DNA of 26,898 nt from Candidatus Saccharimonadota bacterium (GTDB taxonomy: Bacteria > Patescibacteriota > Patescibacteriia > 2-12-FULL-60-25): contig JALHOH010000002.1 in NCBI GenBank assembly GCA_022843095.1, positions 498,891 through 525,788 of the forward strand. The letters run 5' to 3'. A model generated the notes under the pieces. That model saw only the letters and a list, made by a program, of their open reading frames with translations. It ran no database searches and was not told where the DNA came from. Position 1 is the stretch's first letter. Every line of letters begins with the position of its first letter. Both the position numbers and the translations under genes were made by a program. Shown one piece after another: positions 2,954 to 23,714 of this stretch.

Positions 2954-2960
2954 ACGCGTC

Positions 2961-4490
2961 TCAATACGCATCCATAAAAATCGGCGCCAAATATCGATCG
3001 GTTGGCACAAAGTTATCGGTCAGCGCCGGTGAATCATGACCCGCCAAAAACGTTTCCACCTGTTCGTCGGACAGGAGCTGAATCGCATGCGCATGATCTT
3101 CCCCGTCTTCCGGAGCCGCGCCGTCCGGAAAGGTCACGCGTCCCCACGCATCCCGATCGATCGGAACGTCTGTCGCAAGCAACACGTAGGTGTTTCTGCC
3201 GCCACGAATTTCATCGCTGAGCGACGAAACGTATACATGCGTCCACACACTCCGAAGCGTCCGGACCATGGCCGCCAAAAACTGCCCATACCGCGCATCA
3301 TCAATAATATTCATCGCATACACCCCGTCCGGCGTCAGATGTGCTTTGACCCGTTCATGAAATTCCACCGTCGTCAGGTGATATGGAACGCTAAAATCAT
3401 TGAACGCGTCGCCAAACGCAAACGAAAAACGATGTTCGGTGTCCTGGCGTAGATACGCTCGCGCGTCCATGTTCACCGTTTGGATCTTGGTGTCGCGCGG
3501 CAATTGAAGCAACGCATGATTCGCCTCGGTTACGCCCGGATCAATCTCGATGACGACATTCGTGGAGGACGGATAAAAGCGATCCAGATACCGCGGCATC
3601 GCATATCCACCGCCGCCAATAAACAGGTTCGAAAACGTCTCTCCAGCCCCGTGCCGGCTCGCCACGAGGTTTGCGTAGACCTGTTCATATTTGTACCCCA
3701 ATTTCGATGGTTCTTCCGGACGCACATACGAATGCACCAGATGGTCTAGCTTCAGGACATACGCGCCGTCTGCCTGCGCCTCCACGCGAATGCAAAAGTA
3801 CTGCGTTTCCATCTGACACAACCGTGGGACAAACAGATCGCCGACCAAGAGCACCGCCGCAAGCGCCGCATACCGCTTTGGCCACAGCCACGAAGGCGCG
3901 ACCAGACAAAAGCCAATAGCAAACAACAGGGCGGAGATGACGGAAAGGACGGGCTTTGTTCCAAATACGCCGATCAATACCACCCCTGCAAGCAACGTGC
4001 CGATGAGACTTCCGATTGCGTTCGCCGCACCCAAACTCCCCCATCGACGGCCGGTTTGGGCCAACGTCTCCAAATCCATCTTCATTGCAACCGGCTGGAC
4101 GCACGACAACAAAAACGACATGGGAAGCATCGCATACAACGAAAACACGATCACTTTCATGGTGAGGGGCACGTTCCACGACCCCATCGCATTCCCAAGG
4201 ATCGGCACCGTGTAATTCAGCACAAGCGTCGCGACGCCGGTGAGCGCAAACATCTTTGCTAAGGCCAAACGATGACTCGTCCGATCCGCGATCACACCCC
4301 CTGCATAACTCCCGACCGACATCCCGACCAACACGGACCCGATCACCGCGGTCCACGTGAACACCGATACGCCCAAATAGGGCGCCAGCATGCGCGCAAA
4401 CACCAATTCGATGATCATGAGGGAGGCGGATGCGATCCCAACCAGAATCGGACCACGCGCAAGCCACCCGGAAATACGCGAAAGGATCAT
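2961..4490 (-). CDS. Fused polytopic membrane domain / spermidine synthase-like SAM-dependent transferase
   Basis: ORF 2961..4556, with the start trimmed to MILSRISGW (ATGA overlap with the upstream stop at 4487-4490). The N-terminal half is about 8 TM helices. The C-terminal half has NLFIGGGGYAMPRYL (GxGxG), VVIEIDPGV and FGDAFND. Confidence 0.7.
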   Translation of the reverse strand: MILSRISGWLARGPILVGIASASLMIIELVFARMLAPYLGVSVFTWTAVIGSVLVGMSVGSYAGGVIADRTSHRLALAKMFALTGVATLVLNYTVPILGNAMGSWNVPLTMKVIVFSLYAMLPMSFLLSCVQPVAMKMDLETLAQTGRRWGSLGAANAIGSLIGTLLAGVVLIGVFGTKPVLSVISALLFAIGFCLVAPSWLWPKRYAALAAVLLVGDLFVPRLCQMETQYFCIRVEAQADGAYVLKLDHLVHSYVRPEEPSKLGYKYEQVYANLVASRHGAGETFSNLFIGGGGYAMPRYLDRFYPSSTNVVIEIDPGVTEANHALLQLPRDTKIQTVNMDARAYLRQDTEHRFSFAFGDAFNDFSVPYHLTTVEFHERVKAHLTPDGVYAMNIIDDARYGQFLAAMVRTLRSVWTHVYVSSLSDEIRGGRNTYVLLATDVPIDRDAWGRVTFPDGAAPEDGEDHAHAIQLLSDEQVETFLAGHDSPALTDNFVPTDRYLAPIFMDAY

Positions 4491-5122
4491 ACAGAGGGTG
4501 TCGAACGTGAAGACGGCAGAAAGGCGATGGCGATTCCGACCAGCAACAGCGAACACGCAAGCGCAATCAACAATTCGCGCGTCCCAACATACATAAGAAA
4601 CACAAATCCCGAGAGAAACGTCCCCGCGATACTCCCGGCCGCGCCGGACGCACCGATCGCCCCGGCTTCCACTCCTGCACGATCAAGCGTATCCACTGCA
4701 ACCTTCACCACCTGTGGAGACACGGTCGACAAAAAGAACGCCGTGGGAAAAAACACGGTGAGGCAAAACAGAACGGTGGCAAACCAGACCGGCCACTGCG
4801 CCGAGGCAAGCACCGGGCCGACCGCCTGAGACAATGGGATGGCAACAAGCGCCATGATCCCCGCGCATCCAAACGACAGCCCCAGCGTTTTGCGCGTGAC
4901 GCCCCGATCTGCGACCTGCCCACCAAACCAATTCCCTAGAGAAACACCGATCAAAATGACGGCGATGATCGACGTCCACGTGTACAGCGATGCGCCAAGA
5001 TGGGGCGCAAGGACACGGGAGGCCACCATTTCGATGGTCATGAGCGTAAAACTTCCATAAAACACAATCGCCCGCGCAAACGGAAGTTGCGGGGCGAGTG
5101 TCGGGGCGGAACCTGGTTCCAT
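4487..5122 (-). CDS. Stand-alone paralog of the membrane module of the downstream fused gene
   Basis: 211 aa, all TM helices. IEMVASRVLAPHLGASLYTWTSIIAVILIGVSLGNWFGGQVADR aligns by eye with IELVFARMLAPYLGVSVFTWTAVIGSVLVGMSVGSYAGGVIADR of the next gene. Confidence 0.65.
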   Translation of the reverse strand: MEPGSAPTLAPQLPFARAIVFYGSFTLMTIEMVASRVLAPHLGASLYTWTSIIAVILIGVSLGNWFGGQVADRGVTRKTLGLSFGCAGIMALVAIPLSQAVGPVLASAQWPVWFATVLFCLTVFFPTAFFLSTVSPQVVKVAVDTLDRAGVEAGAIGASGAAGSIAGTFLSGFVFLMYVGTRELLIALACSLLLVGIAIAFLPSSRSTPSV

Positions 5123-5387: not shown

Positions 5388-5464
5388 TGGAGCCACCTCG
5401 CGGATTTGAACCGCGGACCTGCTGTTTACAAAACAGCTGCTCTAACCAGCTGAGCTAAGGTGGC
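5388..5464 (-). tRNA. tRNA-Thr (anticodon UGU), CCA encoded
   Basis: The reverse complement folds by hand as GCCACCT-TA-GCTC-AGCTGGTTA-GAGC-A-GCTGT-TTTGTAA-ACAGC-AGGTC-CGCGG-TTCAAAT-CCGCG-AGGTGGC-T-CCA (77 nt). Confidence 0.9.
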
Positions 5465-9601: not shown

Positions 9602-9630
9602 TTGACAAAATCGTCCGGTTCTGCTATGAT
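9602..9630 (+). promoter_or_regulatory. Near-consensus sigma70-type promoter
   Basis: TTGACA (9602-9607), a 17-nt spacer, then TATGAT (9625-9630). It lies about 150 nt upstream of the ATG at 9781. Confidence 0.5.
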
Positions 9631-9780
9631 TATGAGTACAAATTACTCTTTTGTGAGTAGGCAGGTTTTTGAAACGAACTCGACCACAGATGTTTCGCGC
9701 ACCGGATAGAGACGACGTTTTAGAGACGTGTCGATTCACTAGTTATTGTGACTAGTTTTCGATACGGGGAGGTACAGCGC

Positions 9781-10059
9781 ATGAGTCACTCAATGCTTGA
9801 CGCGCGCGGCAAGGAACGCGTGGAGTTTCAACGTGATGAAGTCTACCTCCGCGCGGGCACCTTCCCGCCGGACATCCTCGAGATCGCGGATCGGATGCTT
9901 CGCGCGCACGATCCGTACGTCTACGACCTGCTTCCTCCGCCGAACTACGATCGCGACGACTGGACACCAGATCTCAATGAGTTCCGCTATCGATACGCGG
10001 AACTGTATGGGGTAGCGCCTACTTATTGCCCGACGTTGCCATCCGGCGACTACGCATAG
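9781..10059 (+). CDS. Hypothetical small protein (92 aa)
   Basis: An internal ATG of ORF 9748..10059 is preceded by GGGGAGG 8 nt upstream. The protein starts MSHSMLDARGKERVEFQRDEVYLRAG and is followed by a terminator. I recognise no family. Confidence 0.5.
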   Translation: MSHSMLDARGKERVEFQRDEVYLRAGTFPPDILEIADRMLRAHDPYVYDLLPPPNYDRDDWTPDLNEFRYRYAELYGVAPTYCPTLPSGDYA

Positions 10060-10082
10060 TCTCCGGCCGCGCCGTTCCCCAA

Positions 10083-10106
10083 GCCTCTCAAGATGAGAGG
10101 TTTTTT
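10083..10106 (+). terminator. Rho-independent terminator
   Basis: cctctc-aagat-gagagg is followed by tttttt. It sits between the convergent 92-aa ORF and the 579-aa gene. Confidence 0.7.
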
Positions 10107-10121
10107 GTTTCGACGCCGAGT

Positions 10122-11861
10122 TTAGATTGTCGGAGAATTCCCGCCAGAATCGGCTGTTCCCCCGAAGAGTTCGGCAACGCCTTCGCCGGAAAACAGAAGC
10201 CCTAGCGCGGTCGAATTCCCTGCGGAATGAGCGTCGAGCCAGGGAAAAGTTCCCAAGACAGAGTACGACGGCCCCGCGATCCATCCGTTCCAATCGGTTG
10301 ATGTGTCAACGACTACCCGAACACCGAGTTTCTGCAACTCGGCTTCCGCGGTCGTTCGTTGGGCGTCTGCGGATGTTTCGAGGGCAGAGCAGTACACCGA
10401 AACAGGCCCCTTCACTGAATCGGCGAATCGTTGTACGAGGGAGAGCGTCTTCGTGGCTTCGCTCTGCCATCCAAGCGCCCCGAGCGTGAAATTGGCGAGG
10501 TTGTCGGTCTTGTGCGTCAGCATCCGGAGAACGCCAAGGTGCTCAGGACCGCGAAGAATTTGGACGGAAAACTTTCCCGTGGCGGCACCACGCCTCGCAG
10601 CAAGTTCGCCTGCGTAGCCGTCCAACTTGACAGCAACTGCACGACCGTCGCTATCGGTCTCGAAGGAATCTGACAACGTTCGCAGGACACGCGCAAGACC
10701 CTGTGGATCTCGAAGACGCACCGAGAACGTGCGCACGGACCCGGCGGCCGTTTTCAGCCAGCAATCAGAGCCCCAAAACACATCAAACTGGTCATGGCGA
10801 TCCACCAGCAGAGCCGCACCGCTCCCCGAATATTTCGTGAGCAACAGCTTGCCGGCAACATTGTCCTGCTCTCCGTGAAATCGCAGCTTCTTCAACCGTG
10901 CGACAGCTTCTTTGTCAGTCGTGGATTGAAACGAGTACCCGACAATCACCGTCATTCCACGAGCGATGGCGGCCTCAATGTCTGGCGCCACCGCTTCGAT
11001 CTGTGGCAGTGACAGGCGCGGCGACAACACCGCTGCCCAGCGCACATCAGTCGAGCGGAGTGTATCGCGAAGGAGTTGTCGATGTGCCTCCACAGTGGTC
11101 AAGACATCTGCGCGATCAATCGACTCGGTCCAATCCGACGACGATTGCGTTGACACTCCTTCCGCTATCCGGCTATTCAACTTGAGGATCGAACGACTGA
11201 TTTTGTCAGACTGTGTTTGTGGCTGACGTTCCGCAGCATCAATGCAGTCGAGGGCGAGAGTGTCGATCCACCGCCTTGGAATGCCCGACACGGTTCGGCG
11301 GGCGAGATCGACATCTGCCATCGCAAACAATCCCGATGCCTGCTCGAGCACAACATCGTTGATCGAGTGGATCCACTGCCCCATGTCTCGGCGGAGCATT
11401 GGATCGACGGCACCGCGTTCCACAGTGTTTGGCAATTCACCGCGGCGGAGTACAGGTGGCTGTTCCACGAGTCCACGCAGCTCGCGACCGCGCACGAGAG
11501 CGATTTCGTGCTGTGCCGCAAGTTGACCAGCCGTCCGTTCCTCGAAGATTGCCATCGAGCGCACCGTCAGAGTGCGCCCCTTCGGCAAGGCATCCTGCTG
11601 TGCGAGTGCGGCTTGGCCCGCCGCTGTCACCACAAAGTTCTCTGACTCCGAGGCGATGGCTAGCCAACCAGCGTGCATCAACGTGACCACGGCCTCGATC
11701 AACACGCGGCGGTGCAGAGCGAAGAGCTGATGAATTGCATCGAGGGAGGTATGCCCTTGCTGCACGGCCTGCAGCAGCAGACGCTCAAGCGGCGAGTAGG
11801 GACGCCCTTGTCCAACAGTATACGACACACGATGCCGACGTAGAGGAATGAGAACGATCAT
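10122..11861 (-). CDS. wHTH + tandem PLD-like (HKD-less) protein; partner of the kinase-helicase (Mokosh MkoB-like position)
   Basis: 579 aa. The start ATG overlaps the upstream stop (ATGA at 11858-11861). The N-terminus is winged-helix-like (SPLERLLLQAVQQGHTSLDAIHQLF...). Two segments have a PLD-type layout: VRWAAVLSPRL..IEAAIARGMTVIVGY..AALLVDRHDQFDVFWGSDCWL and LQKLGVRVVVDTSTDWNGWIAGPSYSVLGTFPWL. None of the 13 His residues sits in an HxK context. Confidence 0.55.
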   Translation of the reverse strand: MIVLIPLRRHRVSYTVGQGRPYSPLERLLLQAVQQGHTSLDAIHQLFALHRRVLIEAVVTLMHAGWLAIASESENFVVTAAGQAALAQQDALPKGRTLTVRSMAIFEERTAGQLAAQHEIALVRGRELRGLVEQPPVLRRGELPNTVERGAVDPMLRRDMGQWIHSINDVVLEQASGLFAMADVDLARRTVSGIPRRWIDTLALDCIDAAERQPQTQSDKISRSILKLNSRIAEGVSTQSSSDWTESIDRADVLTTVEAHRQLLRDTLRSTDVRWAAVLSPRLSLPQIEAVAPDIEAAIARGMTVIVGYSFQSTTDKEAVARLKKLRFHGEQDNVAGKLLLTKYSGSGAALLVDRHDQFDVFWGSDCWLKTAAGSVRTFSVRLRDPQGLARVLRTLSDSFETDSDGRAVAVKLDGYAGELAARRGAATGKFSVQILRGPEHLGVLRMLTHKTDNLANFTLGALGWQSEATKTLSLVQRFADSVKGPVSVYCSALETSADAQRTTAEAELQKLGVRVVVDTSTDWNGWIAGPSYSVLGTFPWLDAHSAGNSTALGLLFSGEGVAELFGGTADSGGNSPTI

Positions 11862-14800
11862 CGCGACCTCCGAACGTCACTCGCCTGTAGTTTGAGTACT
11901 TCTCCGGACTTCATCTTTTCGGCCAGGTAGTCGATAGCGATACGCCAGTGCCCGAGTGGGTTATCCGGATCTCGCGGGATGTCCTTCACTACTCCAGAAA
12001 AGAAATCCCACGAACCAACCAACACCAACATCCGCTCGGCGCGAGAAAACAAGACGTTCATTCGTGTGGCATCTCGCAAGAAACCCAACGAGCGCCCGAC
12101 GTCACTTCCGTGGCGATTTCGAACTAGCGAAACCACCACCACGTCCGCTTGATCGCCTTGAAACGAATCCACTGTACGCACCAATTGGTTCGCCCGCTCT
12201 TTGTGGTTGCCGCGCTGCGCTCCTCGGTCTTCGATCGGCACGAACCACGCAGGCAGATTCCCCAGCGACGCAAACTTCTTGGTGAGCAAGTGCACTTGGC
12301 GTCGATACGGAGACAAGACTACGAGTCGAAGTGGTTTCGGAGGAGGAGTTGTAGGCGTGAGCGCGAATACGAAGTCGGAAAGCAGCTTCGCTTCTGGTTC
12401 CGATTCGTGCTCCGTCTCCTCTTCTCGAGAACGAGCCGCGGGGACATCGAGCCACACGATAGGGCAGCCCGATACTCCCAGCGGCGTCGAAAACGGGTGA
12501 ACAACGCGTGCGAGCGGAACTCCATCCTGAACGGTCATACTTTCGATCGGTTCGCGGTAGTACGCACTGGCGATCAGACCCGCGATTGCGGGGTGCATTC
12601 GATGCTGTTGCCACAGCATCATCGCCATCGCGTCGTCGCTCGCCTCGTCGCTACTTGCTTCATGTTCCCCGCTGGAGTTGCGGCATCGTTTGAACAACTC
12701 AGCAAACGTTGGCAACCACTCGCGCCAGAGACTGCGGCGATCGTCTCTCGCGCTTTCGTCGTCGAGGTCTCTCCACGTGCGAACCAGATCTCGATCAAGC
12801 AATCCCCCCGCGCCCGGCGCAAGTCTGTCGAGTTCATCCATCGCATCATCGATTCGGTCCAGCGCCTTTACAAAGTGGTCGAATCGGTAGGGCGGCAGCT
12901 GATTCTGATCCCCAACCAACAGCCAGCGGTGCCCTGCCTGGAGCGGGAGTACCAAGTCAAAGCCGTGCGCCTTTCCTGCTTCTTCGATGATCGACCAGTC
13001 GAAGGTCTGATGTCGCTTGGTCACGAAGTCGGCGAGATCGCGTGCGGTGGTCGTTCCGAATGTGACGCTGGCGGCATGTCGAAACAGCTCGATCATGTCG
13101 CGGGCACCGCTCGCGTCGTCACTTGTCGAGATTCCAGCAATGCCGTCCTCGAGCACCTTCAGCCACGCTCGTTCAAGTGCGGATTTGTCGTCTCGCTGCT
13201 CGACGATCGAAAGCACGCGACGCAACTCCCGCTCCGTTACTCGTTTGGGAGTGTCAGGATCGCCTCCATCTCCGTCCGGCCGATCCAGGCGGATGAGGTA
13301 CGGTCGTCGATCTTCTGGGATTGTGCTCAACATTTCGCGAACACGGTCACGGAGAACATCGACGGCGGCGTGGGCCTGCGCCGAGACGAGTACCTGCGCA
13401 ACAGGATCGTCTTCGAAGATTTGGGCGAGCAAATTCGCAACAAGAGTCGTCTTGCCTGTGCCGGGCGGGCCCTGTAGCGCAAACACAGGTCGCGTCCGCC
13501 AGATCCGCCGCAATGCCTGCTGTTTCGCCTTGTCGAGCTTTGCCGCTTCTCGCTGCAGCGGCAAGTCGGTTTCCGCAGAGTCCATGCGAAAAAAGTCGGG
13601 CGAGAGCAGAGATCGCATCAAGTAGCCATGATGACGAAGACGTTCGATTGCGTCTTTTCTGCGATGCAGAAGGCTGTACTGAAGAAAATAGTCTTTTGCG
13701 CGTAAGCAACCCTTGCTCGGTGCCGCCTGAGGTTGCTGCTGCCTGCGCAGGTGCACGATGTCGCCATCTATCCCGTCGACGGTCCAGTATTCGTATTCGT
13801 TGATGCGCCCCTGGACCGACAGTGCGCGGTCCTCCCCGAGGAACACGAGATCGCCGTTCACACTGTCAGCTGCCAGTTGCCGCAAATGCCCCGTCATGCC
13901 ATCTTTGGGGCGAACAAAGTCAAACACAGACGCGCTTGGCGGGATCTCACGAATTGAACGATATTCGACACCTCCTTCAGCGCGGTGCGAAACAGTTTCG
14001 TAGTCAAATATTTCAGATGCGCGAAACATCACCTCAATCTGATTTGTCAGTCGAAAGAACTCATGAAGCCGTTCGAATCGATCCCGATCGACGGCTCCGG
14101 GATCGAGAACAGGCAAGAGCGGTTTCCACGGGAGCGACTTTCGCCGAATCGCATCGGCGTCTCTCTTTACACTAGAGAGCAGGTGTACGCTGATCTTGGT
14201 ATTGCTCAGAACGACAGGCGATACTCCGACGGGATTGTAGGCGTTCTGCGCCGGCCTGCCGCAATACGCAATCGCCCAGTCTCCGGCGGGATCATTCGAG
14301 CGATCGCGGTATTCGGTGAGGTGGTACATGAGTCTTCGGCCAACTAGACCGACGCTCATTCGAGCTGGCTCCAGGCGCCCAAGAACACGCGCATCCAGCA
14401 AATCCTGTGCAATAAACTCGCGCTGTCGTTCTATGTCGTTCGCCGGAATCTTCGGCTCTTCATCGATGATTGCCGCCGTGAGGTCGCTGCCTGGACCAAG
14501 GTTGACCGCAAGTGCGAGTTGGGCATCTTTCGGCGCGATGGTTGTTCGCTGAAGGTGCGAAAGGATCTGGCCGATTCGCTGGTCGATCTCGTCCGCGCGC
14601 GACAGACGAGTGGACTCATCCCTTGCGATCAGGTCTGAAATTAGTTCAATTTCGTGCGGAATGAGCTTGGGCTTCCCTTTTAGTGTATCCCGGAAGTCGT
14701 CGAGATTTCCCTCGATTCCTCCAACGAATACCCAGGCGATGAGCGCCCCGAAGTCGAGCCAGTCCTGCGCAAAGGAAGCCGGTGTGTCGCGACGTGCCTG

Positions 14801-15364
14801 ACTTGCTCCTCGAGCAGCACCAAGACGCACGGTCCATTCGAACCCACCGAGGCGCATCGACAGCGGCCCATCAGCGGCGTTGAGAAACACGCTGCGGGCC
14901 GTCAGCGCTCGGTGGATCATCTGCTGTTCATGCAAGCGACCAAGCCCGCGGCTGAGGTTTCGTACGCCTTGCCAAACCCCCACTCGTGCCGAAGCGTCGT
15001 GCAGCCCGCGTAGCCAGTCGGTTCTACCTCGCTGCTTGAGCAGATCGTGCAGCGGCGTGACTCCTTCAACCGCGAGCGCCATCACGAATCGCTGGGCAGG
15101 TTGGTCGATCCCCGCGGCACGCAGCGTGACAAGCTCGCGTTCGATTCCAGGTAGGCTCGCTAGACGAAAGAGGTGTCGAATCTCGACGTCCCACAGCGCA
15201 CGCTCGATATCAGTGGGTCGGCCTCTTCGAAACTCCCATGCCTTGATGAGATGTGGCGCCGAGTATCGGTTTTCGCCCTCCCAAATGTCAGCGCCCTCGA
15301 TGGATGGGAGTTGACTAACGAGCGTGAATCGCCCGTCCAGAAGTTGCTGCCCCTGCACTAGCAT
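11858..15364 (-). CDS. Large fusion protein: N-terminal Ser/Thr-kinase-like domain + C-terminal SF1 Upf1/DNA2-type helicase (AAA_11/AAA_12, COG1112-like); Mokosh MkoA-like
   Basis: 1168 aa. Kinase-like motifs are HLIKAW (K41), WDVEIRHL, IHRALTARSVFL and RLGGFEW. Helicase motifs are FALQGPPGTGKTT (Walker A), WSIIEEAGKA, LLVGDQNQLPP, VDSFQGDQADVVVVSLVRN and GFLRDATRMNVLFSRAERMLVLVG. Confidence 0.75.
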   Translation of the reverse strand: MLVQGQQLLDGRFTLVSQLPSIEGADIWEGENRYSAPHLIKAWEFRRGRPTDIERALWDVEIRHLFRLASLPGIERELVTLRAAGIDQPAQRFVMALAVEGVTPLHDLLKQRGRTDWLRGLHDASARVGVWQGVRNLSRGLGRLHEQQMIHRALTARSVFLNAADGPLSMRLGGFEWTVRLGAARGASQARRDTPASFAQDWLDFGALIAWVFVGGIEGNLDDFRDTLKGKPKLIPHEIELISDLIARDESTRLSRADEIDQRIGQILSHLQRTTIAPKDAQLALAVNLGPGSDLTAAIIDEEPKIPANDIERQREFIAQDLLDARVLGRLEPARMSVGLVGRRLMYHLTEYRDRSNDPAGDWAIAYCGRPAQNAYNPVGVSPVVLSNTKISVHLLSSVKRDADAIRRKSLPWKPLLPVLDPGAVDRDRFERLHEFFRLTNQIEVMFRASEIFDYETVSHRAEGGVEYRSIREIPPSASVFDFVRPKDGMTGHLRQLAADSVNGDLVFLGEDRALSVQGRINEYEYWTVDGIDGDIVHLRRQQQPQAAPSKGCLRAKDYFLQYSLLHRRKDAIERLRHHGYLMRSLLSPDFFRMDSAETDLPLQREAAKLDKAKQQALRRIWRTRPVFALQGPPGTGKTTLVANLLAQIFEDDPVAQVLVSAQAHAAVDVLRDRVREMLSTIPEDRRPYLIRLDRPDGDGGDPDTPKRVTERELRRVLSIVEQRDDKSALERAWLKVLEDGIAGISTSDDASGARDMIELFRHAASVTFGTTTARDLADFVTKRHQTFDWSIIEEAGKAHGFDLVLPLQAGHRWLLVGDQNQLPPYRFDHFVKALDRIDDAMDELDRLAPGAGGLLDRDLVRTWRDLDDESARDDRRSLWREWLPTFAELFKRCRNSSGEHEASSDEASDDAMAMMLWQQHRMHPAIAGLIASAYYREPIESMTVQDGVPLARVVHPFSTPLGVSGCPIVWLDVPAARSREEETEHESEPEAKLLSDFVFALTPTTPPPKPLRLVVLSPYRRQVHLLTKKFASLGNLPAWFVPIEDRGAQRGNHKERANQLVRTVDSFQGDQADVVVVSLVRNRHGSDVGRSLGFLRDATRMNVLFSRAERMLVLVGSWDFFSGVVKDIPRDPDNPLGHWRIAIDYLAEKMKSGEVLKLQASDVRRSR

Positions 15365-15468
15365 GACCGGTCACCTCTTGAGCAAAGAGAACAGTATGCA
15401 CGCCCCGGTCCTCCCAACGCTGGCCCGTCAACGAGCTGGAGTTTGGAGTAACGCGGTGGTCACCATTC

Positions 15469-15496
15469 GACGACACCCCATCTACGCCGTGTCGTC
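15469..15496. repeat. 8-bp inverted repeat upstream of the kinase-helicase gene
   Basis: gacgacac (15469-15476) and gtgtcgtc (15489-15496) with a 12-nt spacer, about 105-130 nt upstream of the ATG at 15364. It may be an operator or a hairpin. Confidence 0.25.
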
Positions 15497-15721
15497 AATC
15501 CGAAATCTGCGGAAAAATGGCGAACGGGGATGCCGTCGTACATTGCGCCCAGTTCGGGAGGACTCGCCGAGTCTCTTCGGCGTGCTGTTTGGTATATTGC
15601 AAGCGGACAGCCGCGACCGACGTATTCGCGTGAAGCGACTTAGGCGCGTAGCGGTTTGAATCGATCCCGGCGATTGGTGGGCGCGATTCCAGCGGCAGAC
15701 GACACGGGCTTGCCGCGAGCG

Positions 15722-16138: not shown

Positions 16139-17536
16139 TCACACGCACGTCCCCCGGCAGCAGGACTGCCCCACCCCGCACGCGTTCCCGCAGCGACCGC
16201 AGTGCTGGTTCGAGTTGAACGGGCAGACGGTTGCGCCGCCGCAAATCGTGGTCCCGCCCGAGCAGCTCGGAGACGGCGTACACGCGCCTGCCGCGCAGCC
16301 TTCGCCGCAGCCGCAGCGCCGCCCGCAGCCGCCGCAGTTCATTGGGTCGTCCGAAACGCTGATGCACGTCCCACCGCAAAGCTCTGTGCCCGCAGGGCAC
16401 GCGCAACGCCCGCTCACGCAGCTCACGCCGCTCGGGCACACCGCTCCGCAGCGCCCGCAGTTGAACGGGTTGGTCTGCGGGTTCACGCAGCCAGGGCCAG
16501 GGCAGTAGATCTCGCCGGCCGTCATGCAGTCGGAGCACATGCCCGCAACGCAGTGCTGCCCGGCGCCGCAGGCGTTTCCGCAGCGCCCGCAGTTACGGGT
16601 GTCGTTCTGCGTATTGACGCAGATCGGACTCATCGCCGTCCCACACAGCGTGGGGCGATCCGCTGGACAACGGCACATCCCCGCTTCGCAGACGCCGTCC
16701 CGGCCGAACATGCGCGTGCAGTTTGTCGTGCAGTTCCCGCAGAAGAACGGGTTCGTCATGAAGTCCACGTTGCACGCAGTGACGCCCGTGATGCGGAGAT
16801 CCCCGGACTGGCTGCTGCCCAGGTACTCGATCGTGGTGTCGCAGCGCGCCCCGCTTCCTGCTGCGCAACGGCAAGCTCCCGCGACGCAGTCTGCGCCGTT
16901 CGGCACGTTGATCGAGCTCCGATAGCCGAGGAAGTCGTAGCAGAGCACCGCGCGATCACAGCCGAGCCCGCAGCCACCGTTGCCCGTCTCGGGGAGACAC
17001 GAGGAGCCACACGTCTGCACGCCGTCGTCGACGCGGCCGTCGCAGTTGTCGTCGCGCACATTGCAGCGTTCGGACGCTGCCGGGTGTACGAGCGGATCAG
17101 CGTCGTCGCAGTCGGAGCCCCCGCAAACGAGCGGCGGATAGCCGTCCATGTCCCCGTCGAGCGGCTCGGAGCGACACGTTCGAGACGCCGCGTCACAGCG
17201 CTCCATTCGCGTGCAAGGATCCATGTCGGCGCAGTCGCTATCGCCTCCGCACGCGCGCCCCATCACACAACCGCGCCGTGGGTCACAATACGCGCCGGCG
17301 GTGCAGCGTGCCGCGACCACAGGGTGGACGCAGCGGCCAAGATCGCAGCGATCGACCGTGCAATCGATGCCATCGTCGCACTCCGCCGCAGAGGAGCAGC
17401 CGACGGCGCTGCCATCCACGACCGCGCCATCCATCACCGCGATGGCACCGTCTCGGCCGCCTCCATCGGGTCCAGGAGGAGGCGGCGACGTACAGCCGAA
17501 GGCGAGCAACACAACGAGCAGAGCGAAGCGCGACAC
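16139..17536 (-). CDS. Secreted cysteine-rich repeat lipoprotein (MopE-like metal-binding motif + repeated NCGxCGxxC modules)
   Basis: It has a signal plus lipobox-like MSRFALLVVLLAFGC, then DGYPPLVCGGSDCDDADPLVHPAASERCNVRDDNCDGRVDD. At least five modules follow, such as DTRNCGRCGNACGAGQHCVAGMC, NPFNCGRCGAVCPSGVSCVSGRC, DPMNCGGCGRRCGCGEGCAAGAC and NQHCGRCGNACGVGQSCCRGTC. This style is common in Myxococcota-like genomes. Confidence 0.7.
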   Translation of the reverse strand: MSRFALLVVLLAFGCTSPPPPGPDGGGRDGAIAVMDGAVVDGSAVGCSSAAECDDGIDCTVDRCDLGRCVHPVVAARCTAGAYCDPRRGCVMGRACGGDSDCADMDPCTRMERCDAASRTCRSEPLDGDMDGYPPLVCGGSDCDDADPLVHPAASERCNVRDDNCDGRVDDGVQTCGSSCLPETGNGGCGLGCDRAVLCYDFLGYRSSINVPNGADCVAGACRCAAGSGARCDTTIEYLGSSQSGDLRITGVTACNVDFMTNPFFCGNCTTNCTRMFGRDGVCEAGMCRCPADRPTLCGTAMSPICVNTQNDTRNCGRCGNACGAGQHCVAGMCSDCMTAGEIYCPGPGCVNPQTNPFNCGRCGAVCPSGVSCVSGRCACPAGTELCGGTCISVSDDPMNCGGCGRRCGCGEGCAAGACTPSPSCSGGTTICGGATVCPFNSNQHCGRCGNACGVGQSCCRGTCV

Positions 17537-17579: not shown

Positions 17580-18680
17580 CTACGCGCAGCTCGAAGCGGT
17601 GCAACGCGCGGCGATCGCGGGACACGCAGACCTCGCCGAACGCGACGTCTCCGTGGGGAAAACCAGCCCGAATGGACCGCTCGACGTTGCGCCCAAGTTC
17701 CCTTCGACGCAAGGCCGTTCGGGCCGGAAAGTGACTGCCTGTTCGCGCGTCGGTGGGACAGGGGCTTCGGCGGATGACGCGCGCAGCTCCGGTGGAATTG
17801 CGGCGGCAAGCGTCGCGATCGCGCGCCTTCGATGCGTGTCCACGAGGTGCAGGTACTGCATGGTGGTCGTGACGGAGGCGTGTCTGAGCGCGCCCGCGAC
17901 AACCGCGACATCGGCCCCGGCGGTCAGCATGTGCGTCGCGGCTGCGTGACGGAAGCTGTGCGGGCTCACCTTGCGCGTGATGCCTGCCTTCCCGCGCAGG
18001 ACTGCGATCACGTGCTGCACGGCACGGACAGAGAGCCGCGTACCGGTCTGCAGCCCGACGAAGAGTGCGGTCTCCCCTGCTTTGGCGATCGCGCCGCGCG
18101 CCTCGACCCACGCCGTGAGCAACGCGAGGGCATCGGGGTTCAGCGCGACGCTGTGTCGGGTCGCGCCCTTCCCGTGCACGTCGAGGAGCGACGCGCTCAC
18201 CGGCTCGAGCTGCGAGACCGTGAGCCCGGCCACCTCGTGCACACGCAGCGCGGTCTGCGACAACACCGCGAGGAGCGCGATGCTGCGGCTCCGCGCGACG
18301 GGGTCCGGCTCTTGGGCTGCCGCGGAGAACATCGCGCGGATCTCTCCGAGCGTTGGGACTGCGGGCTCGTGTGCAGGCTCACGCAAGAGCCGGATGCCTT
18401 TCGTGGGGTCGCGAGAGAGGAGCCCGTGCTCTGCGGCGAAGCGGAAGAACACGCGCAATGCGGCAAGGTCGAGGTTCCTTGCGCGCGGGGCTCGCGCCGC
18501 GCCGGTCTGCTTCGGGCGCACAAGGAAGGCTTCGACGTCTGCGAGGCTTGGCTCTGTTTTCACAGGCAGATCGCGGAACGCGAAGAACGTCTCCACGATC
18601 CGTGCGTACGTGGCTTGGGTTCGTGGGGCGTGGTTTCTGGCGGAGAGAAAGCGGCGAAAGTCGTCGAGGTGTTCACGCAT
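17580..18680 (-). CDS. Tyrosine recombinase / phage-type integrase (XerC/D-like)
   Basis: The N-terminal SAM-like domain reads FLSARNHAPRTQATYARIVETFFAF. Catalytic signatures are ALRVHEVAGL (R), HSFRHAAATHM (HxxR), LRHASVTTT and MQYLH (Y). About 70 aa of non-canonical C-terminal tail follow. Confidence 0.8.
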   Translation of the reverse strand: MREHLDDFRRFLSARNHAPRTQATYARIVETFFAFRDLPVKTEPSLADVEAFLVRPKQTGAARAPRARNLDLAALRVFFRFAAEHGLLSRDPTKGIRLLREPAHEPAVPTLGEIRAMFSAAAQEPDPVARSRSIALLAVLSQTALRVHEVAGLTVSQLEPVSASLLDVHGKGATRHSVALNPDALALLTAWVEARGAIAKAGETALFVGLQTGTRLSVRAVQHVIAVLRGKAGITRKVSPHSFRHAAATHMLTAGADVAVVAGALRHASVTTTMQYLHLVDTHRRRAIATLAAAIPPELRASSAEAPVPPTREQAVTFRPERPCVEGNLGATSSGPFGLVFPTETSRSARSACPAIAARCTASSCA

Positions 18681-18748
18681 ATGCGCGACGGTTCACCACG
18701 CAGGGTACCTGGCGGGCGAGGCTGTTGACGAGGGCGGCCGAAGCAACG

Positions 18749-18778
18749 CGCTTCGTCGAAGGGAACTTGGACGAAGCG
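18749..18778. repeat. 9-bp inverted repeat between the CBASS effector stop and the integrase start
   Basis: cgcttcgtc (18749-18757) and gacgaagcg (18770-18778) with a 12-nt loop. It could be a U-tract-less terminator or a protein-binding site. Confidence 0.3.
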
Positions 18779-18811
18779 GCGTGAGGCGGGCATCTCGGCG
18801 TGCGACCATCC

Positions 18812-19471
18812 TCATGCCCCATCCGCGTCGGTCGGAGTGGACGTCGTCGGAGCCGTCGCGCCCGTGCTCGCAGCTGGTGATGACGTTCTCGCCGCGACGC
18901 GCTTCGTGAGCGTCAGCGAACCGAACGTCTGGCGATCGCGGTCGTTGTAGTAGCGACCTCGAGCTGTTCCATCTGCCGCGAACGTAATCTTCGCCGTGCC
19001 CGCATGCGCGTGGAGGTCGGCCTTCGCCGCGGGATCTGGCTCGTTGCGGTATGCGTAGGTGAGCACGGCACCCTGCGTTGGATCGTCCGAGAGCCACGCC
19101 CCGATGCTCGACGAGCTCGATGTCGCGGTCTTCACGGTCACGAGGATGCGGGTCCACTCCTGCGCGATCGTGAGCGTCCCCTTGATGGGCTTCGCGTGCT
19201 GATCGTTCGACGAGAGAATCTCCAGCTCGTACGTGCCGCGAAGGTCCGGGATGCCGTGCAGCCATCGAAACGCATGCCAGCCCCACTTGTTGAAGAACCA
19301 CGCGAGGCCCGCGAGGAATCCGAAGGGCGCGGGCGTGTCGATCCACCACGGCGCATGCACCACCTCCAAGATCTTGCCCAAACCGAACGCGAGCGCGAGC
19401 GCGGGAACGAAGAGCCACCGCTGCGCCTCTTCCTGCTTGTCGTGGGCATACGGGTGAATGCCCGCACTCAT
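18812..19471 (-). CDS. cap15: CBASS effector, 2TM + beta-strand-rich domain (S-2TMbeta / Cap15-like)
   Basis: ORF 18812..19504 trimmed to MSAGIHPY (ATGA overlap with the cyclase stop at 19468-19471). Two TM helices (WLFVPALALAFGLGKILEVV, FGFLAGLAWFFNKWGW) are followed by a beta-rich segment (GTYELEILS..GTLTIAQEWTRILVTVKT..VLTYAYRNEP..GTAKITFAADGTARGRYYNDRDRQTFGSLTLTKR). Confidence 0.65.
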   Translation of the reverse strand: MSAGIHPYAHDKQEEAQRWLFVPALALAFGLGKILEVVHAPWWIDTPAPFGFLAGLAWFFNKWGWHAFRWLHGIPDLRGTYELEILSSNDQHAKPIKGTLTIAQEWTRILVTVKTATSSSSSIGAWLSDDPTQGAVLTYAYRNEPDPAAKADLHAHAGTAKITFAADGTARGRYYNDRDRQTFGSLTLTKRVAARTSSPAASTGATAPTTSTPTDADGA

Positions 19472-20349
19472 GACGGCGACTGCCCGTTGAACGCGCGGAT
19501 CCACGCCTCCCGCGCGAGCTGCTCGTTCGGCGCACGTCGGGCGTAGTCGGCGTGCACAAGCGCCTCACCGAGCCTCTGCTGAAAGGACTTGAATTGTGGG
19601 GCGTCCCACTCAGTGCTCGTGAAGATGCTGTCCTCTCCTCCAGGACGACGCACGGGGCGCGTGTCGTAGTTCCAGGCGACGATCTCGTGCCCGACGGACA
19701 CGAAGGCATCTGCACCGACGTTCGAGAAGCATCCGTCGGGCACCGCATGGAGCAGGCACTCGATGTAGAACGAGGGGGCGATCTTGCTGTCCGTCGTGAC
19801 GGCACGCCGCCATGCCTTGAAGAGACGCACCGTTTGCTTGAACGCGCCGTCCGTGCGGCGACTCTTCTCCGCTCCCGCTTCGTAGTGGCTGCGCGGCCAG
19901 TTGCGGCGTTCGCGCCTCTCGCGAAACGAGTAGATCGCGACAGGGTCGCTCTCGGGGCTCGTGACGTAGATCGCGGGAACGACGTCGATCGTGACGCCCG
20001 TGTTCAACTGGATGCACTTGTCTTTCCGCTGCCACTTCCCGGCATACCGGCTGTCCGCCTGAAGTTTGCGCTCGATGCGCGCGAAGATCTCGTCCCACGA
20101 GACGGTCGTACCGCCCGCCGCGACCCGACCGAACGTGCTGCTCACGACGCCGAAGGAGACTGCGACGAGATCAACATCGTTCATGTCCCAGAGCGACGTT
20201 TCGTTCTTGTAGCTGCCCTGGAGGAGCGTCGCGTACCCGTCGCCCAGCGCGGCTCGAACGTTTTGATGGAGGGACACGGCTCGCGCGACGGTGCTCTCCG
20301 CGGGCGGGCGGGCGTATCGAAGGACGAAGTCGTTCGGCAGGTTGGACAT
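19468..20349 (-). CDS. CD-NTase / SMODS-family nucleotidyltransferase (CBASS cyclase)
   Basis: LLQGSYKNETSLWDMNDVDLVAV carries the GS ... DxD motifs, VTIDVVPAIY the third acidic residue, and LFKAWRR and PSFYIECLL are present. This layout is typical of cGAS/DncV-like nucleotidyltransferases. Confidence 0.7.
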   Translation of the reverse strand: MSNLPNDFVLRYARPPAESTVARAVSLHQNVRAALGDGYATLLQGSYKNETSLWDMNDVDLVAVSFGVVSSTFGRVAAGGTTVSWDEIFARIERKLQADSRYAGKWQRKDKCIQLNTGVTIDVVPAIYVTSPESDPVAIYSFRERRERRNWPRSHYEAGAEKSRRTDGAFKQTVRLFKAWRRAVTTDSKIAPSFYIECLLHAVPDGCFSNVGADAFVSVGHEIVAWNYDTRPVRRPGGEDSIFTSTEWDAPQFKSFQQRLGEALVHADYARRAPNEQLAREAWIRAFNGQSPS

Positions 20350-20484: not shown

Positions 20485-20964
20485 GTGCTTGCTGACGTGC
20501 GTGGTGGCGGAGCGACGAAGTACGCTCCGCATGTGGCAGAGAAGCTCGTGTATCACCGGCTCGATGCGCCTTCTCGAACGTCGCCGTTCGCGCGAGCGAT
20601 CGCGAAGATCGCCCGAGGCGGGAAGGTCGACGTCGTCGGCCCCTATCTCAGCGTCGAGCGGCTGAACGAGCTCGTGTCGCACACGACGTCGTGGCGGCTC
20701 GTGACGGACGCGCAGGAGTGGCTGCGCGCGGAGGGGCACGAGGCGCAGAGAGCGGCGGACTTCATCGAAGCACACCATAAGCGGGTGCGGGACTGTCGCG
20801 GGGTACACGCCAAGGTCGTGATCGGCACGGAAGAGGCGCTTGTTGGCTCGGCGAACCTAACGGCGATCGCCTGGCTCTCCCAACGAAGCTCATCGTCGAA
20901 ACCCTACAATGCCCATCGCGGTAGCGGTAGCGGTCAAGCTCGGATGCTGGCAAAGAATCGTTGA
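20485..20964 (+). CDS. Single-HKD phospholipase D-family (Nuc-like) nuclease
   Basis: FARAIAKIARGGKVDVVGPYLS is followed by GVHAKVVIGTEEALVGSANLT (HxK ... GSxN). Its size of about 159 aa is like dimeric Nuc-type enzymes. The start is uncertain (GTG at 20485 or 20533). The last ~28 codons lie in lower-GC sequence and the last 31 nt overlap a convergent ORF. Confidence 0.65.
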   Translation: MLADVRGGGATKYAPHVAEKLVYHRLDAPSRTSPFARAIAKIARGGKVDVVGPYLSVERLNELVSHTTSWRLVTDAQEWLRAEGHEAQRAADFIEAHHKRVRDCRGVHAKVVIGTEEALVGSANLTAIAWLSQRSSSSKPYNAHRGSGSGQARMLAKNR

Positions 20965-22127: not shown

Positions 22128-23714
22128 TCAGGACAGATTGGTAGAAACGATCGTTCGGAGCAGATCGTTCCAGGAGTTCGTTGCAAGCGAGAGTCTCTGG
22201 GTAGCCGACAACCAGAACCGCTTGCCTACGTCGCGCCGGTCTACTCGCTGGTCGAGTGAAGGCGACAGCGGCTTGCTGTACGCCGCCTCGATCTGTGTAT
22301 CGAGTGCCGAACGCGCATATCGTGCGTGCTCATGAAACGGAGACGTTGTTCCGAAATCTGCGGAAAGAAGCGCAAAAATGGTCTCTTTCACTTGGGGGAG
22401 CGAGGTGTTTCGAATCTTACTCTCCCCTACTTCCTTCATGGATGCGAGCACGAGTTTACAAGCAACCACCAGGTATTCGAGGGCAAGCGTAAAGTCGACG
22501 CCAGCAATTCCATTCGGGGGCAACGGCGAAGGCAATCGCGCTCCCGCGACGCGTAGCGCTTCGCTGCAGCCCAAGAACGGCACGCGATGGGACCACCGAT
22601 GATACGCGAGATCCTCTACAACCTGGGCGAAGTTCGCGGCTCCTTTGCCTTCCATAATTCGCTTGACCTGTTCCGCATCTTCAGGGTTGAGCGTGATGCC
22701 TCCGGGTTGAACCCTGTTCTGCAGCTTTCGACTGGCAAAGTGGCGAATGAGCGTACGAACCTCTTCGAGCGAAGCGTCTTTCGAGAACAGCGGGATGTCC
22801 ATTGCGACCCACTCCTGGAAAGAGGAGTTGAGCGAAGAGTTCGTCGGCCGAACCCCTATGCTCGATGAGTGCATGACTTTCAGGCCGGCGGATTGACCGA
22901 GCCAGTAGGACAAGGCCGGAAGTTCGAAGACGCTGGACTCGCCGTTGACCTTCATAGTGGACCCGATGTCGAGAATCTCGACCGTGAGGCCATGCTTGCC
23001 TTCGTCCTGCGGACTGGGTTCCGAGGAGCGATTGGTCGCACTACGTTGGTTGAATCGACTTTGCAATTCGTTGAGCGTCACCTCCTTGATACAATACTGG
23101 TCTGTGACCATCGCGCCGAGAAGTCGAGCCCACAGTCTCGCCTCGAATCCGCACAGGACGTACGGTTTCAACGATGGAACAGAATTCGTGTCGATCGCGC
23201 GGAGAACATCCTGCGCCGCGTGTGCCAACTGACTGAAAAACTGCGTTCTTGTGTCGTTCAGCAGCAGCAGTGGCTTCTCTCCCCTCACTCCTACCATCAG
23301 GTCAGCGGATTCAGGTCCGGAAAGGACCTGAATATCGCTCCACAGGCAGTAGTCATCATTTCTGGCATTCAAGGCGCTCACGAGTGCATTGATGTTTTGC
23401 ACCCTTGCCTCGAACCGCCGCTCAGAAGTCAGCACATTCGCGAAGCGCTCGATCTGGGAGTCGGTGAGCACGTCGCTCTCATCGATTGTGCCGGTGTTCA
23501 GGCCAGTCGCAGCCGCGACTTGGCGAAGGCGCTCGACGCTGATGTTGCATGCGTTAGCAAACATCGCCAACGTCGTTCCCCCCGTGGAAACGGGCGCGAT
23601 GCCACTCCCTGGAGTGACCTGCTCGTTGGACCTGTTGTCCTGAGTGATGGAGCGACCTGAAGCGGGAAAGTCGCTCGGCGCACGGGAAGCCCTTTCGGAC
23701 TTCGCGTGCGCCAT
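22128..23714 (-). CDS. Hypothetical protein (528 aa), no recognised domain
   Basis: A long uninterrupted ORF in the low-GC islet. The N-terminal ~50 aa are disorder-like, and an alternative start is M51 (23564). I found no P-loop or nuclease signature. Confidence 0.6.
   Translation of the reverse strand: MAHAKSERASRAPSDFPASGRSITQDNRSNEQVTPGSGIAPVSTGGTTLAMFANACNISVERLRQVAAATGLNTGTIDESDVLTDSQIERFANVLTSERRFEARVQNINALVSALNARNDDYCLWSDIQVLSGPESADLMVGVRGEKPLLLLNDTRTQFFSQLAHAAQDVLRAIDTNSVPSLKPYVLCGFEARLWARLLGAMVTDQYCIKEVTLNELQSRFNQRSATNRSSEPSPQDEGKHGLTVEILDIGSTMKVNGESSVFELPALSYWLGQSAGLKVMHSSSIGVRPTNSSLNSSFQEWVAMDIPLFSKDASLEEVRTLIRHFASRKLQNRVQPGGITLNPEDAEQVKRIMEGKGAANFAQVVEDLAYHRWSHRVPFLGCSEALRVAGARLPSPLPPNGIAGVDFTLALEYLVVACKLVLASMKEVGESKIRNTSLPQVKETIFALLSADFGTTSPFHEHARYARSALDTQIEAAYSKPLSPSLDQRVDRRDVGKRFWLSATQRLSLATNSWNDLLRTIVSTNLS

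Follow-up and report, generated by a model that had tools for sequence, protein, structure and literature searches.

A probable type I Mokosh operon of the ETEC H10407 type with a predicted catalytically dead PLD partner

Two overlapping minus-strand genes occupy positions 10,122 to 15,364 of a 26,898-nucleotide stretch of DNA from a Candidatus Saccharimonadota bacterium (GenBank assembly GCA_022843095.1, contig JALHOH010000002.1, positions 498,891 to 525,788; this whole stretch is called the window below). From profile matches, alignments and predicted structures they are likely to be the two genes of an anti-phage operon, a type I Mokosh of the kind known from enterotoxigenic Escherichia coli (ETEC) H10407, with a dead PLD in the partner protein. 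Mokosh ranks with the more common of the recently discovered defence systems, it has been suggested that the animal MOV10L1/Zucchini module of the PIWI-interacting RNA (piRNA) pathway may descend from it, and its working model is that the helicase senses and the PLD cuts. The system itself, type I Mokosh, is known; what appears to be new is a widespread branch of paired genes with a predicted catalytically dead PLD, in which nature has set up a test of the PLD nuclease as the Mokosh effector.

The mkoA-mkoB operon and its assignment

The operon and the domains of its two proteins are laid out as follows (SF1B, superfamily 1B; HTH, helix-turn-helix).

15365..15655 (-): non-coding region upstream of mkoA (sequence and promoter scan)
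11858..15364 (-): mkoA, ATG start, 1168 aa, predicted pseudokinase with Upf1-like SF1B helicase
14540..15364 (-): MkoA residues ~1-275, protein-kinase fold without catalytic aspartates (Foldseek and motif alignment)
13565..14539 (-): MkoA residues ~276-600, beta-rich middle region (PADLOC profile, alignment and AlphaFold2 secondary structure)
11858..13564 (-): MkoA residues ~601-1168, SF1B helicase core (Pfam and phmmer)
11858..11875 (-): ATGA stop/start overlap and GGAGG Shine-Dalgarno sequence of mkoB (read from the sequence)
10122..11861 (-): mkoB, ATG start, 579 aa, winged-HTH and putative pseudo-PLD partner
11157..11861 (-): MkoB residues 1-235, beta-hairpin, winged HTH and beta-rich module (AlphaFold2 and ETEC alignment)
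10587..11135 (-): MkoB PLD lobe 1, residues ~243-425 (MAFFT columns and Foldseek)
10149..10571 (-): MkoB PLD lobe 2, residues ~431-571 (MAFFT columns and profile match to 4ggj)
10081..10103 (no strand assigned): hairpin with a 10-bp stem, 19 nt past the mkoB stop (terminator scan)

Both open reading frames (ORFs) were found exactly where the initial annotation of this DNA had placed them, and the mkoA stop and the mkoB start share a 4-nt ATGA at 11858-11861 (context cgATGAtc; junction sequence cggaggtcgcgATGAtcg). A GGAGG lies 5 nt upstream of the mkoB ATG, and this site together with the overlap indicates that mkoB is translationally coupled to mkoA, which itself has an AGAGGTG ribosome-binding site 7 nt before its ATG. 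No consensus sigma-70 promoter was found by a promoter scan of 15365-15655. The hairpin at 10081-10103 reads as a terminator common to mkoB and to a convergent ORF at 9748-10059(+), and as it directly follows mkoB, the operon comprises two genes only. The convergent ORF (103 aa, no family match) lies in 9602-10103(+) and has a near-consensus sigma-70 promoter with an 11/12 match (TTGACA-17-TATGAT, extended TG).

PADLOC and DefenseFinder call Mokosh type I from MkoA and MkoB profile matches in adjacent genes, and such matches were obtained here with the PADLOC profiles, MkoA matching PDLC03920 (E 2.6e-210, profile positions 4-1100 of 1112) and MkoB matching PDLC03922 (E 3.4e-42, residues 2-455 against profile positions 7-491 of 610). 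The MkoA E-value and the ORF lengths of 3.5 kb and 1.7 kb exclude a chance origin. The validated pair of E. coli ETEC H10407 matches the same two profiles, which PADLOC separates cleanly from those of the SEC470 type (PDLC03921/PDLC03923); this assigns the window pair to the ETEC type. Weak matches to the MkoC profile were also seen for the window proteins. Millman et al. (10.1101/2022.05.11.491447, supplementary file 11) list two type I systems that gave defence in experiments, and both were recovered from E. coli genomes: the ETEC H10407 system (locus L001) and a SEC470-type system (locus L008). In BLASTP, window and ETEC MkoA were colinear, with 28% identity in the helicase (E 3e-66) and 24% in the N-terminal domain (E 5e-21). 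Pairwise BLAST of window against ETEC MkoB aligned the HTH/N-terminus only (E 2e-7), so that profiles and predicted structure were needed to recognise the PLD homology. The window pair is almost certainly a homologous member of Mokosh I. Type I Mokosh as the nearest described family, as initially annotated, is upheld both by the PADLOC profiles and by the homology to the ETEC pair, but the further suggestion of a distinct, merely Mokosh-like system is not, as both profiles match strongly and are those of the validated pair. Of the canonical type I Mokosh with conserved HKD and kinase residues that had been named as the opposite of a novel system, the family call stood and the conserved residues did not.

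Pfam bore out the expected domains in part: the helicase gave clear matches (AAA_11, E 5.9e-24; AAA_12, E 2.2e-29), the kinase-like N-domain a weak one (PK_Tyr_Ser-Thr, E 0.018) and MkoB no PLDc_2 match at E <=1. All five helicase motifs quoted in the initial annotation were located in MkoA, with Walker A as GPPGTGKT (632-639, Lys K638), motif II as IIEEAG (792-797, E794-E795; EE in ETEC MkoA too), motif III as GDQNQLPP (818-825) and motifs V and VI within 1064-1110 (TVDSFQGDQADVVVVS at 1064-1079, NVLFSRAE at 1103-1110). Judged by these motifs, the helicase is intact. Among PDB sequences the helicase part matched IGHMBP2, DNA2, Sen1, Upf1/NAM7 and ZNFX1 in phmmer, and MkoA has the COG1112/Upf1-like RNA helicase domain with an ATP-binding site that belongs to a Millman-type definition of Mokosh. 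The middle region is conserved in the MkoA subfamily, with a continuous PADLOC profile and invariant alignment columns.

An AlphaFold2 model of MkoA residues 1-600, built with ten homologs (predicted local distance difference test, pLDDT, 73.7), matched PknB (6i2p, E 5e-11), BRAF and KSR1 in Foldseek (probability 1.0, TM-score <=0.70). On the strength of this model the annotated kinase-like N-domain is a genuine kinase fold, and its fusion to the helicase again conforms to the Millman-type definition, with the catalytic aspartates absent as in ETEC MkoA. The catalytic motifs were compared in an alignment of window MkoA, ETEC MkoA, the homologs P0152-P0162 (35-45% identity) and Bacillus nealsonii MkoA:

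Window MkoA: catalytic loop HRA (H151-R152-A153); DFG position GGFEW (173-177)
ETEC MkoA (validated): catalytic loop HRH; DFG position TGFEW
11 MkoA homologs: catalytic loop H[R/C/T]x; DFG position GGFEW or the variants GGFDW, GGFEL, GGFEF and GRFEW in 10/11
Bacillus nealsonii MkoA (canonical): catalytic loop HRDLKPSN; DFG position DFG

The HRD and DFG aspartates are absent from 11/11 close homologs and from validated ETEC MkoA, and every aligned sequence retains the beta3 Lys (K41) and the alphaC Glu (E61); no glycine-rich loop (GxGxxG) was read in the MkoA sequence. The marks of an active eukaryotic-like kinase (HRD Asp, DFG Asp and glycine-rich loop) are thus lacking, and as the catalytic and Mg-binding aspartates are missing, the domain is predicted to be unable to phosphorylate and is, by its motifs, a pseudokinase. 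The initially annotated loss of the kinase signature is real but is no derivative feature of this locus, since ETEC MkoA and all 11 homologs share it. In the aligned sequences the absent signature is the norm for the MkoA subfamily, including a member proven to defend, and kinase-motif loss was therefore ruled out as the mark of a new variant.

HKD loss in MkoB and its relatives

The AlphaFold2 model of MkoB, obtained from a 15-sequence alignment (pLDDT 78.4), consists of an N-terminal beta-hairpin, a winged HTH (residues 24-78, helix-helix-helix-strand-strand), a beta-rich module and two alpha/beta lobes. The top Foldseek matches in the PDB were bilobed PLD-superfamily enzymes only (E ~1e-11, probability 1.0), with vaccinia F13 at the top and human PLD3 and PLD4, E. 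coli PssA and Streptomyces PLD among them. The model shows the winged-helix N-terminus and, together with the Foldseek matches, the two PLD-fold-like repeats that had been read from the sequence of the 579-aa partner. The proposed architecture of both proteins is supported, and the partner gene encodes the PLD-family fold of the Millman-type definition. The profile of an alignment of window MkoB with 14 relatives, 12 of them HKD-less (13 HKD-less and 2 HKD-bearing sequences in all), matched Zucchini/PLD6 (4ggj) over lobe 2 with E 2.9e-4, and Zucchini HHKFAIVD aligned to the profile consensus 'aaNlvvvd'.

ETEC MkoB has the canonical HKD motifs HAKIIVCD at 368 and HAKILSWD at 554 and matches Pfam PLDc_2 (9.4e-16), whereas window MkoB has no HxKxxxxD anywhere in the protein. 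The two regions align as follows:

Lobe 1: ETEC GSHAKIIVCD...GSCNW; window GSGAALLV-D...GSDCW; H to G348, K to A350, N to C367, D354 kept
Lobe 2: ETEC SHAKILSWD...SLNW; window TDWNGWIAG...TFPW; H to D523, K to N525, D to G530, N to P540

The remnants in window MkoB read G346-S-G348-A-A350-L-L-V-D354 ... G364-S-D-C367-W368 in lobe 1 and D523-W-N525 ... G530 ... P540-W541 in lobe 2, and neither lobe has the HxK(x)4D of an intact PLD active site. Catalysis in the PLD superfamily runs via a phospho-histidine formed on the HxK histidine (10.1101/2025.07.10.664194), and with both HxK motifs replaced, window MkoB would be unable to carry out this covalent chemistry of the PLD nucleases. The alignments with ETEC MkoB confirm the annotated loss of the PLD signature, and they make it very likely that the PLD of window MkoB is catalytically dead, a pseudo-enzyme.

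When 1.84 billion cluster representatives were searched exhaustively with MkoB in HMMER, 347 relatives were obtained at E <=1e-3, compared to 3 matches from a word-indexed search. A set of 129 near-full-length sequences (window MkoB, ETEC MkoB and 127 of the best 150 of the 347) was aligned, and addition of five MkoB sequences from fetched loci led to 134, in which the HKD state is distributed as follows:

H and K absent from both motifs: 88/134
H and K present in both motifs: 41/134
H and K present in the first motif only: 5/134

As this sample derives from the best 150 of 347 matches to an HKD-less query, its 65% over-represents the HKD-less state. A neighbour-joining tree from the N-terminal 213 columns (PLD lobes excluded) needs at least 19 changes of HKD state, indicating recurrent loss, and places window MkoB within a large HKD-less cluster. 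Among the 41 HKD-bearing relatives neither motif varies at its His or Lys (100% conservation), and elsewhere in the active site (Ser, Asn, Glu and an extra His) conservation is 83-100%; the 88 HKD-less relatives show no consensus in the active-site columns. Conservation in the family is highest in the N-terminal module (residues 1-235), and over the first 215 residues it does not differ between the two groups.

An mkoA-size AAA_11/AAA_12 gene lies directly upstream of mkoB in all six HKD-less loci inspected (L002, L006, L007, L009, L010 and L011; cut by the contig end in L007), and the two genes overlap by 4 nt in five of them, the sixth being L002, where the ORF call with a TTG start gives an overlap of 94 nt. 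L002 is an Acidobacteriaceae metagenome-assembled genome and was the single locus returned when genome contigs were scanned with one narrow peptide pattern from the MkoB alignment; L006 is from Streptomyces, and L009 is a 682-kb NCBI contig whose MkoB is named Streptomyces lavendulae in the protein database. The upstream proteins of L002, L006 and L007 are 35-45% identical to window MkoA. On these comparisons HKD loss is a trait of a large MkoB branch and not of the window locus alone, and the HKD-less pair is a conserved module, not a one-off wreck. No description of an HKD-less MkoB branch was found in the searchable literature.

Several points weigh against reading this branch as functional. 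Of the residues that live MkoBs conserve, hardly any are left in lobe 2 of window MkoB, the PADLOC score of this MkoB is the lowest among the MkoB homologs scored (143 versus 157-331 bits), the sample favours the HKD-less state as described, and the text of Millman et al. (10.1101/2022.05.11.491447) reports that PLD active-site mutations abolish Mokosh defence, in a passage that does not name the system. The score, the state of lobe 2 and the mutants would, together with the loss of both HKD motifs and of any PLDc_2 match, fit a decaying Mokosh remnant that has lost its active PLD and no longer defends, its ORFs being open owing to recent loss or to a residual role of the helicase. We consider decay unlikely, however, as the long ORFs are intact and ATGA-coupled with a Shine-Dalgarno sequence, AlphaFold2 still gives a confident bilobed PLD fold, and HKD-less MkoBs are numerous and diverse, with an adjacent mkoA kept wherever a locus was inspected. 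In addition, the lobe-1 scaffold (R301, G302, D354, G364 and W368) stays conserved in both groups; its 78-93% conservation among HKD-less relatives speaks for selection that is still at work.

Neighbouring genes and alternative effectors

Further features of the window are:

5388-5464 (-): tRNA-Thr(TGT), complete, 4.7 kb from the Mokosh pair
16139-17536 (-): Cys-rich protein, 465 aa, Pfam Cu-binding_MopE and Stig1, encoded in 68% GC DNA
17580-18680 (-): tyrosine integrase
18812-19504 (-): Cap15, two-transmembrane/beta-barrel effector (Pfam Cap15_CD_rec, 8.9e-31)
19468-20349 (-): CD-NTase (PADLOC Cyclase, 6.8e-26)
20485-20964 (+): ORF of 159 aa with the PLD-like motif VHAKVVIGTEEALVGSANLT (HAKVVIG...GSAN), divergent from the CBASS cyclase

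CD-NTase and Cap15 at 18812-20349(-) represent a type I CBASS, over which a 370-aa ORF in another frame (18693-19805) is probably spurious. Integrase and CBASS operon are thus present near the pair as annotated, but the 'orphan tRNA end' is not, since the tRNA-Thr(TGT) is intact and nothing above chance was found for a partial tRNA copy elsewhere in the window. GC content is 0.65-0.70 in the integrase/CBASS segment versus 0.56-0.60 for the Mokosh pair. An exact 17-nt direct repeat (TCCGAAATCTGCGGAAA at 15499-15515 and 22350-22366, with dissimilar surroundings) brackets 6.85 kb of this higher-GC DNA with the Cys-rich repeat protein, the integrase, the type I CBASS and small ORFs; by our own estimate about 0.02 such repeats are expected by chance in 27 kb. 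The repeat may be the att duplication of an integrative element that inserted just upstream of the mkoA promoter region. Within the gene for the Cys-rich protein a repeat of ~46 nt occurs in four copies at 16322-16772 with a spacing of 123-150 nt.

To the left of the Mokosh pair lie ordinary-looking genes (GST, ABC-2 transporter, DUF3298 protein), and the nearest homologs of the ABC ATPase in the window are ~61-63% identical. Left of the tRNA, 1496-4556(-) encodes a 504-aa protein with a Cas4-like PD-(D/E)XK N-terminal part (PADLOC Cas4, 8.6e-9) and an RNase_H_2/DUF2779 C-terminal part, overlapped by a 531-aa ORF with weak matches to mad2 (1.8e-5) and to a spermine-synthase-like methyltransferase; this region may be another defence or mobile-element module. 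Related Mokosh loci adjoin type IIG restriction-modification, Lit-like Peptidase_U49 and caspase-helicase genes. Downstream of the pair in L002, 8313-10760 encodes a protein of 815 aa that combines HEAT repeats with a PNP_UDP_1 nucleoside-phosphorylase domain (1.9e-28), a domain type that recurs in defence effectors.

The closest MkoA homologs with known context (L003, L004 and L005; 44% identity to window MkoA) are followed by a protein of 1036-1038 aa in which a complete MkoB (profile 7-599 of 610) is fused to the Septu ATPase PtuA (PDLC00269, 4e-129), and next by the PtuB HNH protein (PDLC00340, 5.6e-91). In these three-gene Mokosh-Septu operons, which are on soil metagenome contigs (L003 6001-13441; L004 649-8089; L005 5835-13287), all genes overlap or abut. 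The first HKD motif of the fusion protein is intact in L003 and lost in L005. The window operon is not of this fused kind: no PADLOC match to PtuA or PtuB was found in MkoA, MkoB or the ten neighbouring ORFs scanned, and MkoB stops at 579 aa, with the terminator behind its gene. The fusions and the validated SEC470-type MkoB, which is HTH-only, suggest a constant core of MkoA and the MkoB HTH module and a variable C-terminal end, which would be an active PLD, a dead PLD, nothing, or a PLD with PtuAB.

Such swapping of effector modules onto the scaffold might also point to an effector in trans, in which cleavage is left to a separate nuclease, be it ORF 20485-20964(+) or a fused or neighbouring module like PtuA/PtuB. 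The ORF has an HxK...GSxN motif, its Pfam PLDc_2 match is marginal (E 0.025) and no PDB sequence matches it, which leaves it unconfirmed as a true PLD gene. It might encode a small Nuc-like nuclease with a single HKD motif, or it might be an open frame that arose by chance in GC-rich sequence. As it lies 5 kb off, on the other strand and inside the repeat-bracketed segment with integrase and CBASS, and as a terminator closes the window operon right behind mkoB, an effector in trans is improbable.

MkoB might instead still be a nuclease or hydrolase that works with a non-HKD set of residues in its PLD fold. H260 and H441 could belong to such a set: they stand at the beginning of the two lobes, both are present in window MkoB, and their conservation in the HKD-less group is 0.82 and 0.65 respectively. 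Their conservation in HKD-bearing proteins (1.00 and 0.98) makes them look structural rather than parts of a replacement site, the cleft positions of the HKD-less group show no new consensus, and the HxK histidine is the nucleophile required for PLD-superfamily catalysis; catalysis by other residues is hardly to be expected. A role outside defence, in which an RNA/DNA helicase and its DNA-binding partner would serve housekeeping or a mobile element (for example in RNA decay or element maintenance), is suggested by the resemblance of the helicase core to Upf1, Sen1 and IGHMBP2 with their cellular functions in RNA metabolism, but is highly improbable given the full-length match to defence-specific MkoA/MkoB profiles and a validated system, the patchy distribution with nearest homologs of only 40-45% identity, and the defence genes that adjoin the pair here and in related loci.

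Proposed mechanism and comparison with known systems

For the window pair we propose that MkoA and MkoB act as a complex, joined via the conserved N-terminal module of MkoB, whose HTH would couple MkoB to MkoA and/or nucleic acid. Phage RNA or replication intermediates are the probable targets of the Upf1-like 5'->3' SF1B helicase, which would act on them at the expense of ATP, by analogy with the validated systems and in line with a hypothesis put forward in the text of Millman et al. (10.1101/2022.05.11.491447). The pseudokinase is probably a regulatory or scaffold module, as in validated ETEC MkoA, and the dead PLD may have a structural role or bind phosphate or nucleic acid, in either case without catalysis or cleavage. 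The effector step could then be a remodelling of RNA, ribonucleoprotein or replication intermediates by the helicase, or a roadblock; alternatively, a further host factor would execute immunity. No paper on the mechanism of type I Mokosh was found in the searched literature.

We rather expect the window pair to confer phage defence. That the HKD-less MkoBs form a functional, widespread type I branch, with the pseudokinase-helicase and the HTH as the engine, an exchangeable PLD, and immunity that is nuclease-independent or depends on a further partner, is put forward tentatively, and immunity executed by the helicase itself is a possibility that we regard as doubtful. If HKD-less systems still defend, sensing by the helicase and cutting by the PLD cannot be the general scheme, and these natural variants would be separation-of-function alleles for a dissection of the helicase-pseudokinase. 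If they do not, annotation pipelines over-count functional Mokosh. Either way, the HKD state is worth recording in Mokosh I annotation.

The type I system of ETEC H10407 (SG202 of Millman et al.; MkoA WP_001293588.1, MkoB WP_001180114.1) shares with the window pair the gene order and the overlapping genes, a MkoA with GFEW in the kinase fold, the middle region and a Upf1-like helicase with EE in motif II, a MkoB with HTH and two PLD lobes, and an adjoining integrase. It differs in the canonical H368/K370/D375 and H554/K556/D561 of its MkoB, where window MkoB has G/A and D/N, and the identity between the two systems is only 24-28% for MkoA and pairwise detectable in the HTH only for MkoB. A Upf1-like helicase that works with a PLD-fold protein is also found in MkoC (type II Mokosh) and in MOV10L1/Zucchini (PLD6). 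However, MkoC is a single polypeptide without kinase fold or HTH, and both MkoC and Zucchini have active HKD sites. Vaccinia F13 resembles window MkoB in its bilobed PLD fold with non-canonical active-site motifs, its HKD motif being degenerate with a partial NxKxxxxD kept, but it is a poxvirus envelope protein of ~13% identity.

The SEC470-type Mokosh (SG199; PDLC03921 and PDLC03923) is a validated type I system with a 478-aa MkoB in which no PLD is recognised. Its MkoA is longer than that of the window (1652 aa), with an extra N-terminal NERD-like region and HRD at the catalytic loop, and its MkoB lacks the PLD lobes altogether, whereas window MkoB keeps the dead fold. The RefSeq records NC_017633.1 (ETEC H10407, L001) and NZ_CP007594.1 (SEC470) are equally long and carry the ETEC-type query at the same coordinates, and a 100% match to the cloned 'SEC470' (SG199) system came from strain TUM1886 alone; strain names may not map one to one between RefSeq and the table of Millman et al. 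In the supplementary listing of Millman et al. (10.1101/2022.05.11.491447) the MkoB of the defence-positive SEC470-type system is annotated as 'HTH' only and the system as 'Type I, verified'. Type I Mokosh can thus defend without a recognisable PLD, and an intact PLD active site is not universal in Mokosh type I as the name is used in that work.

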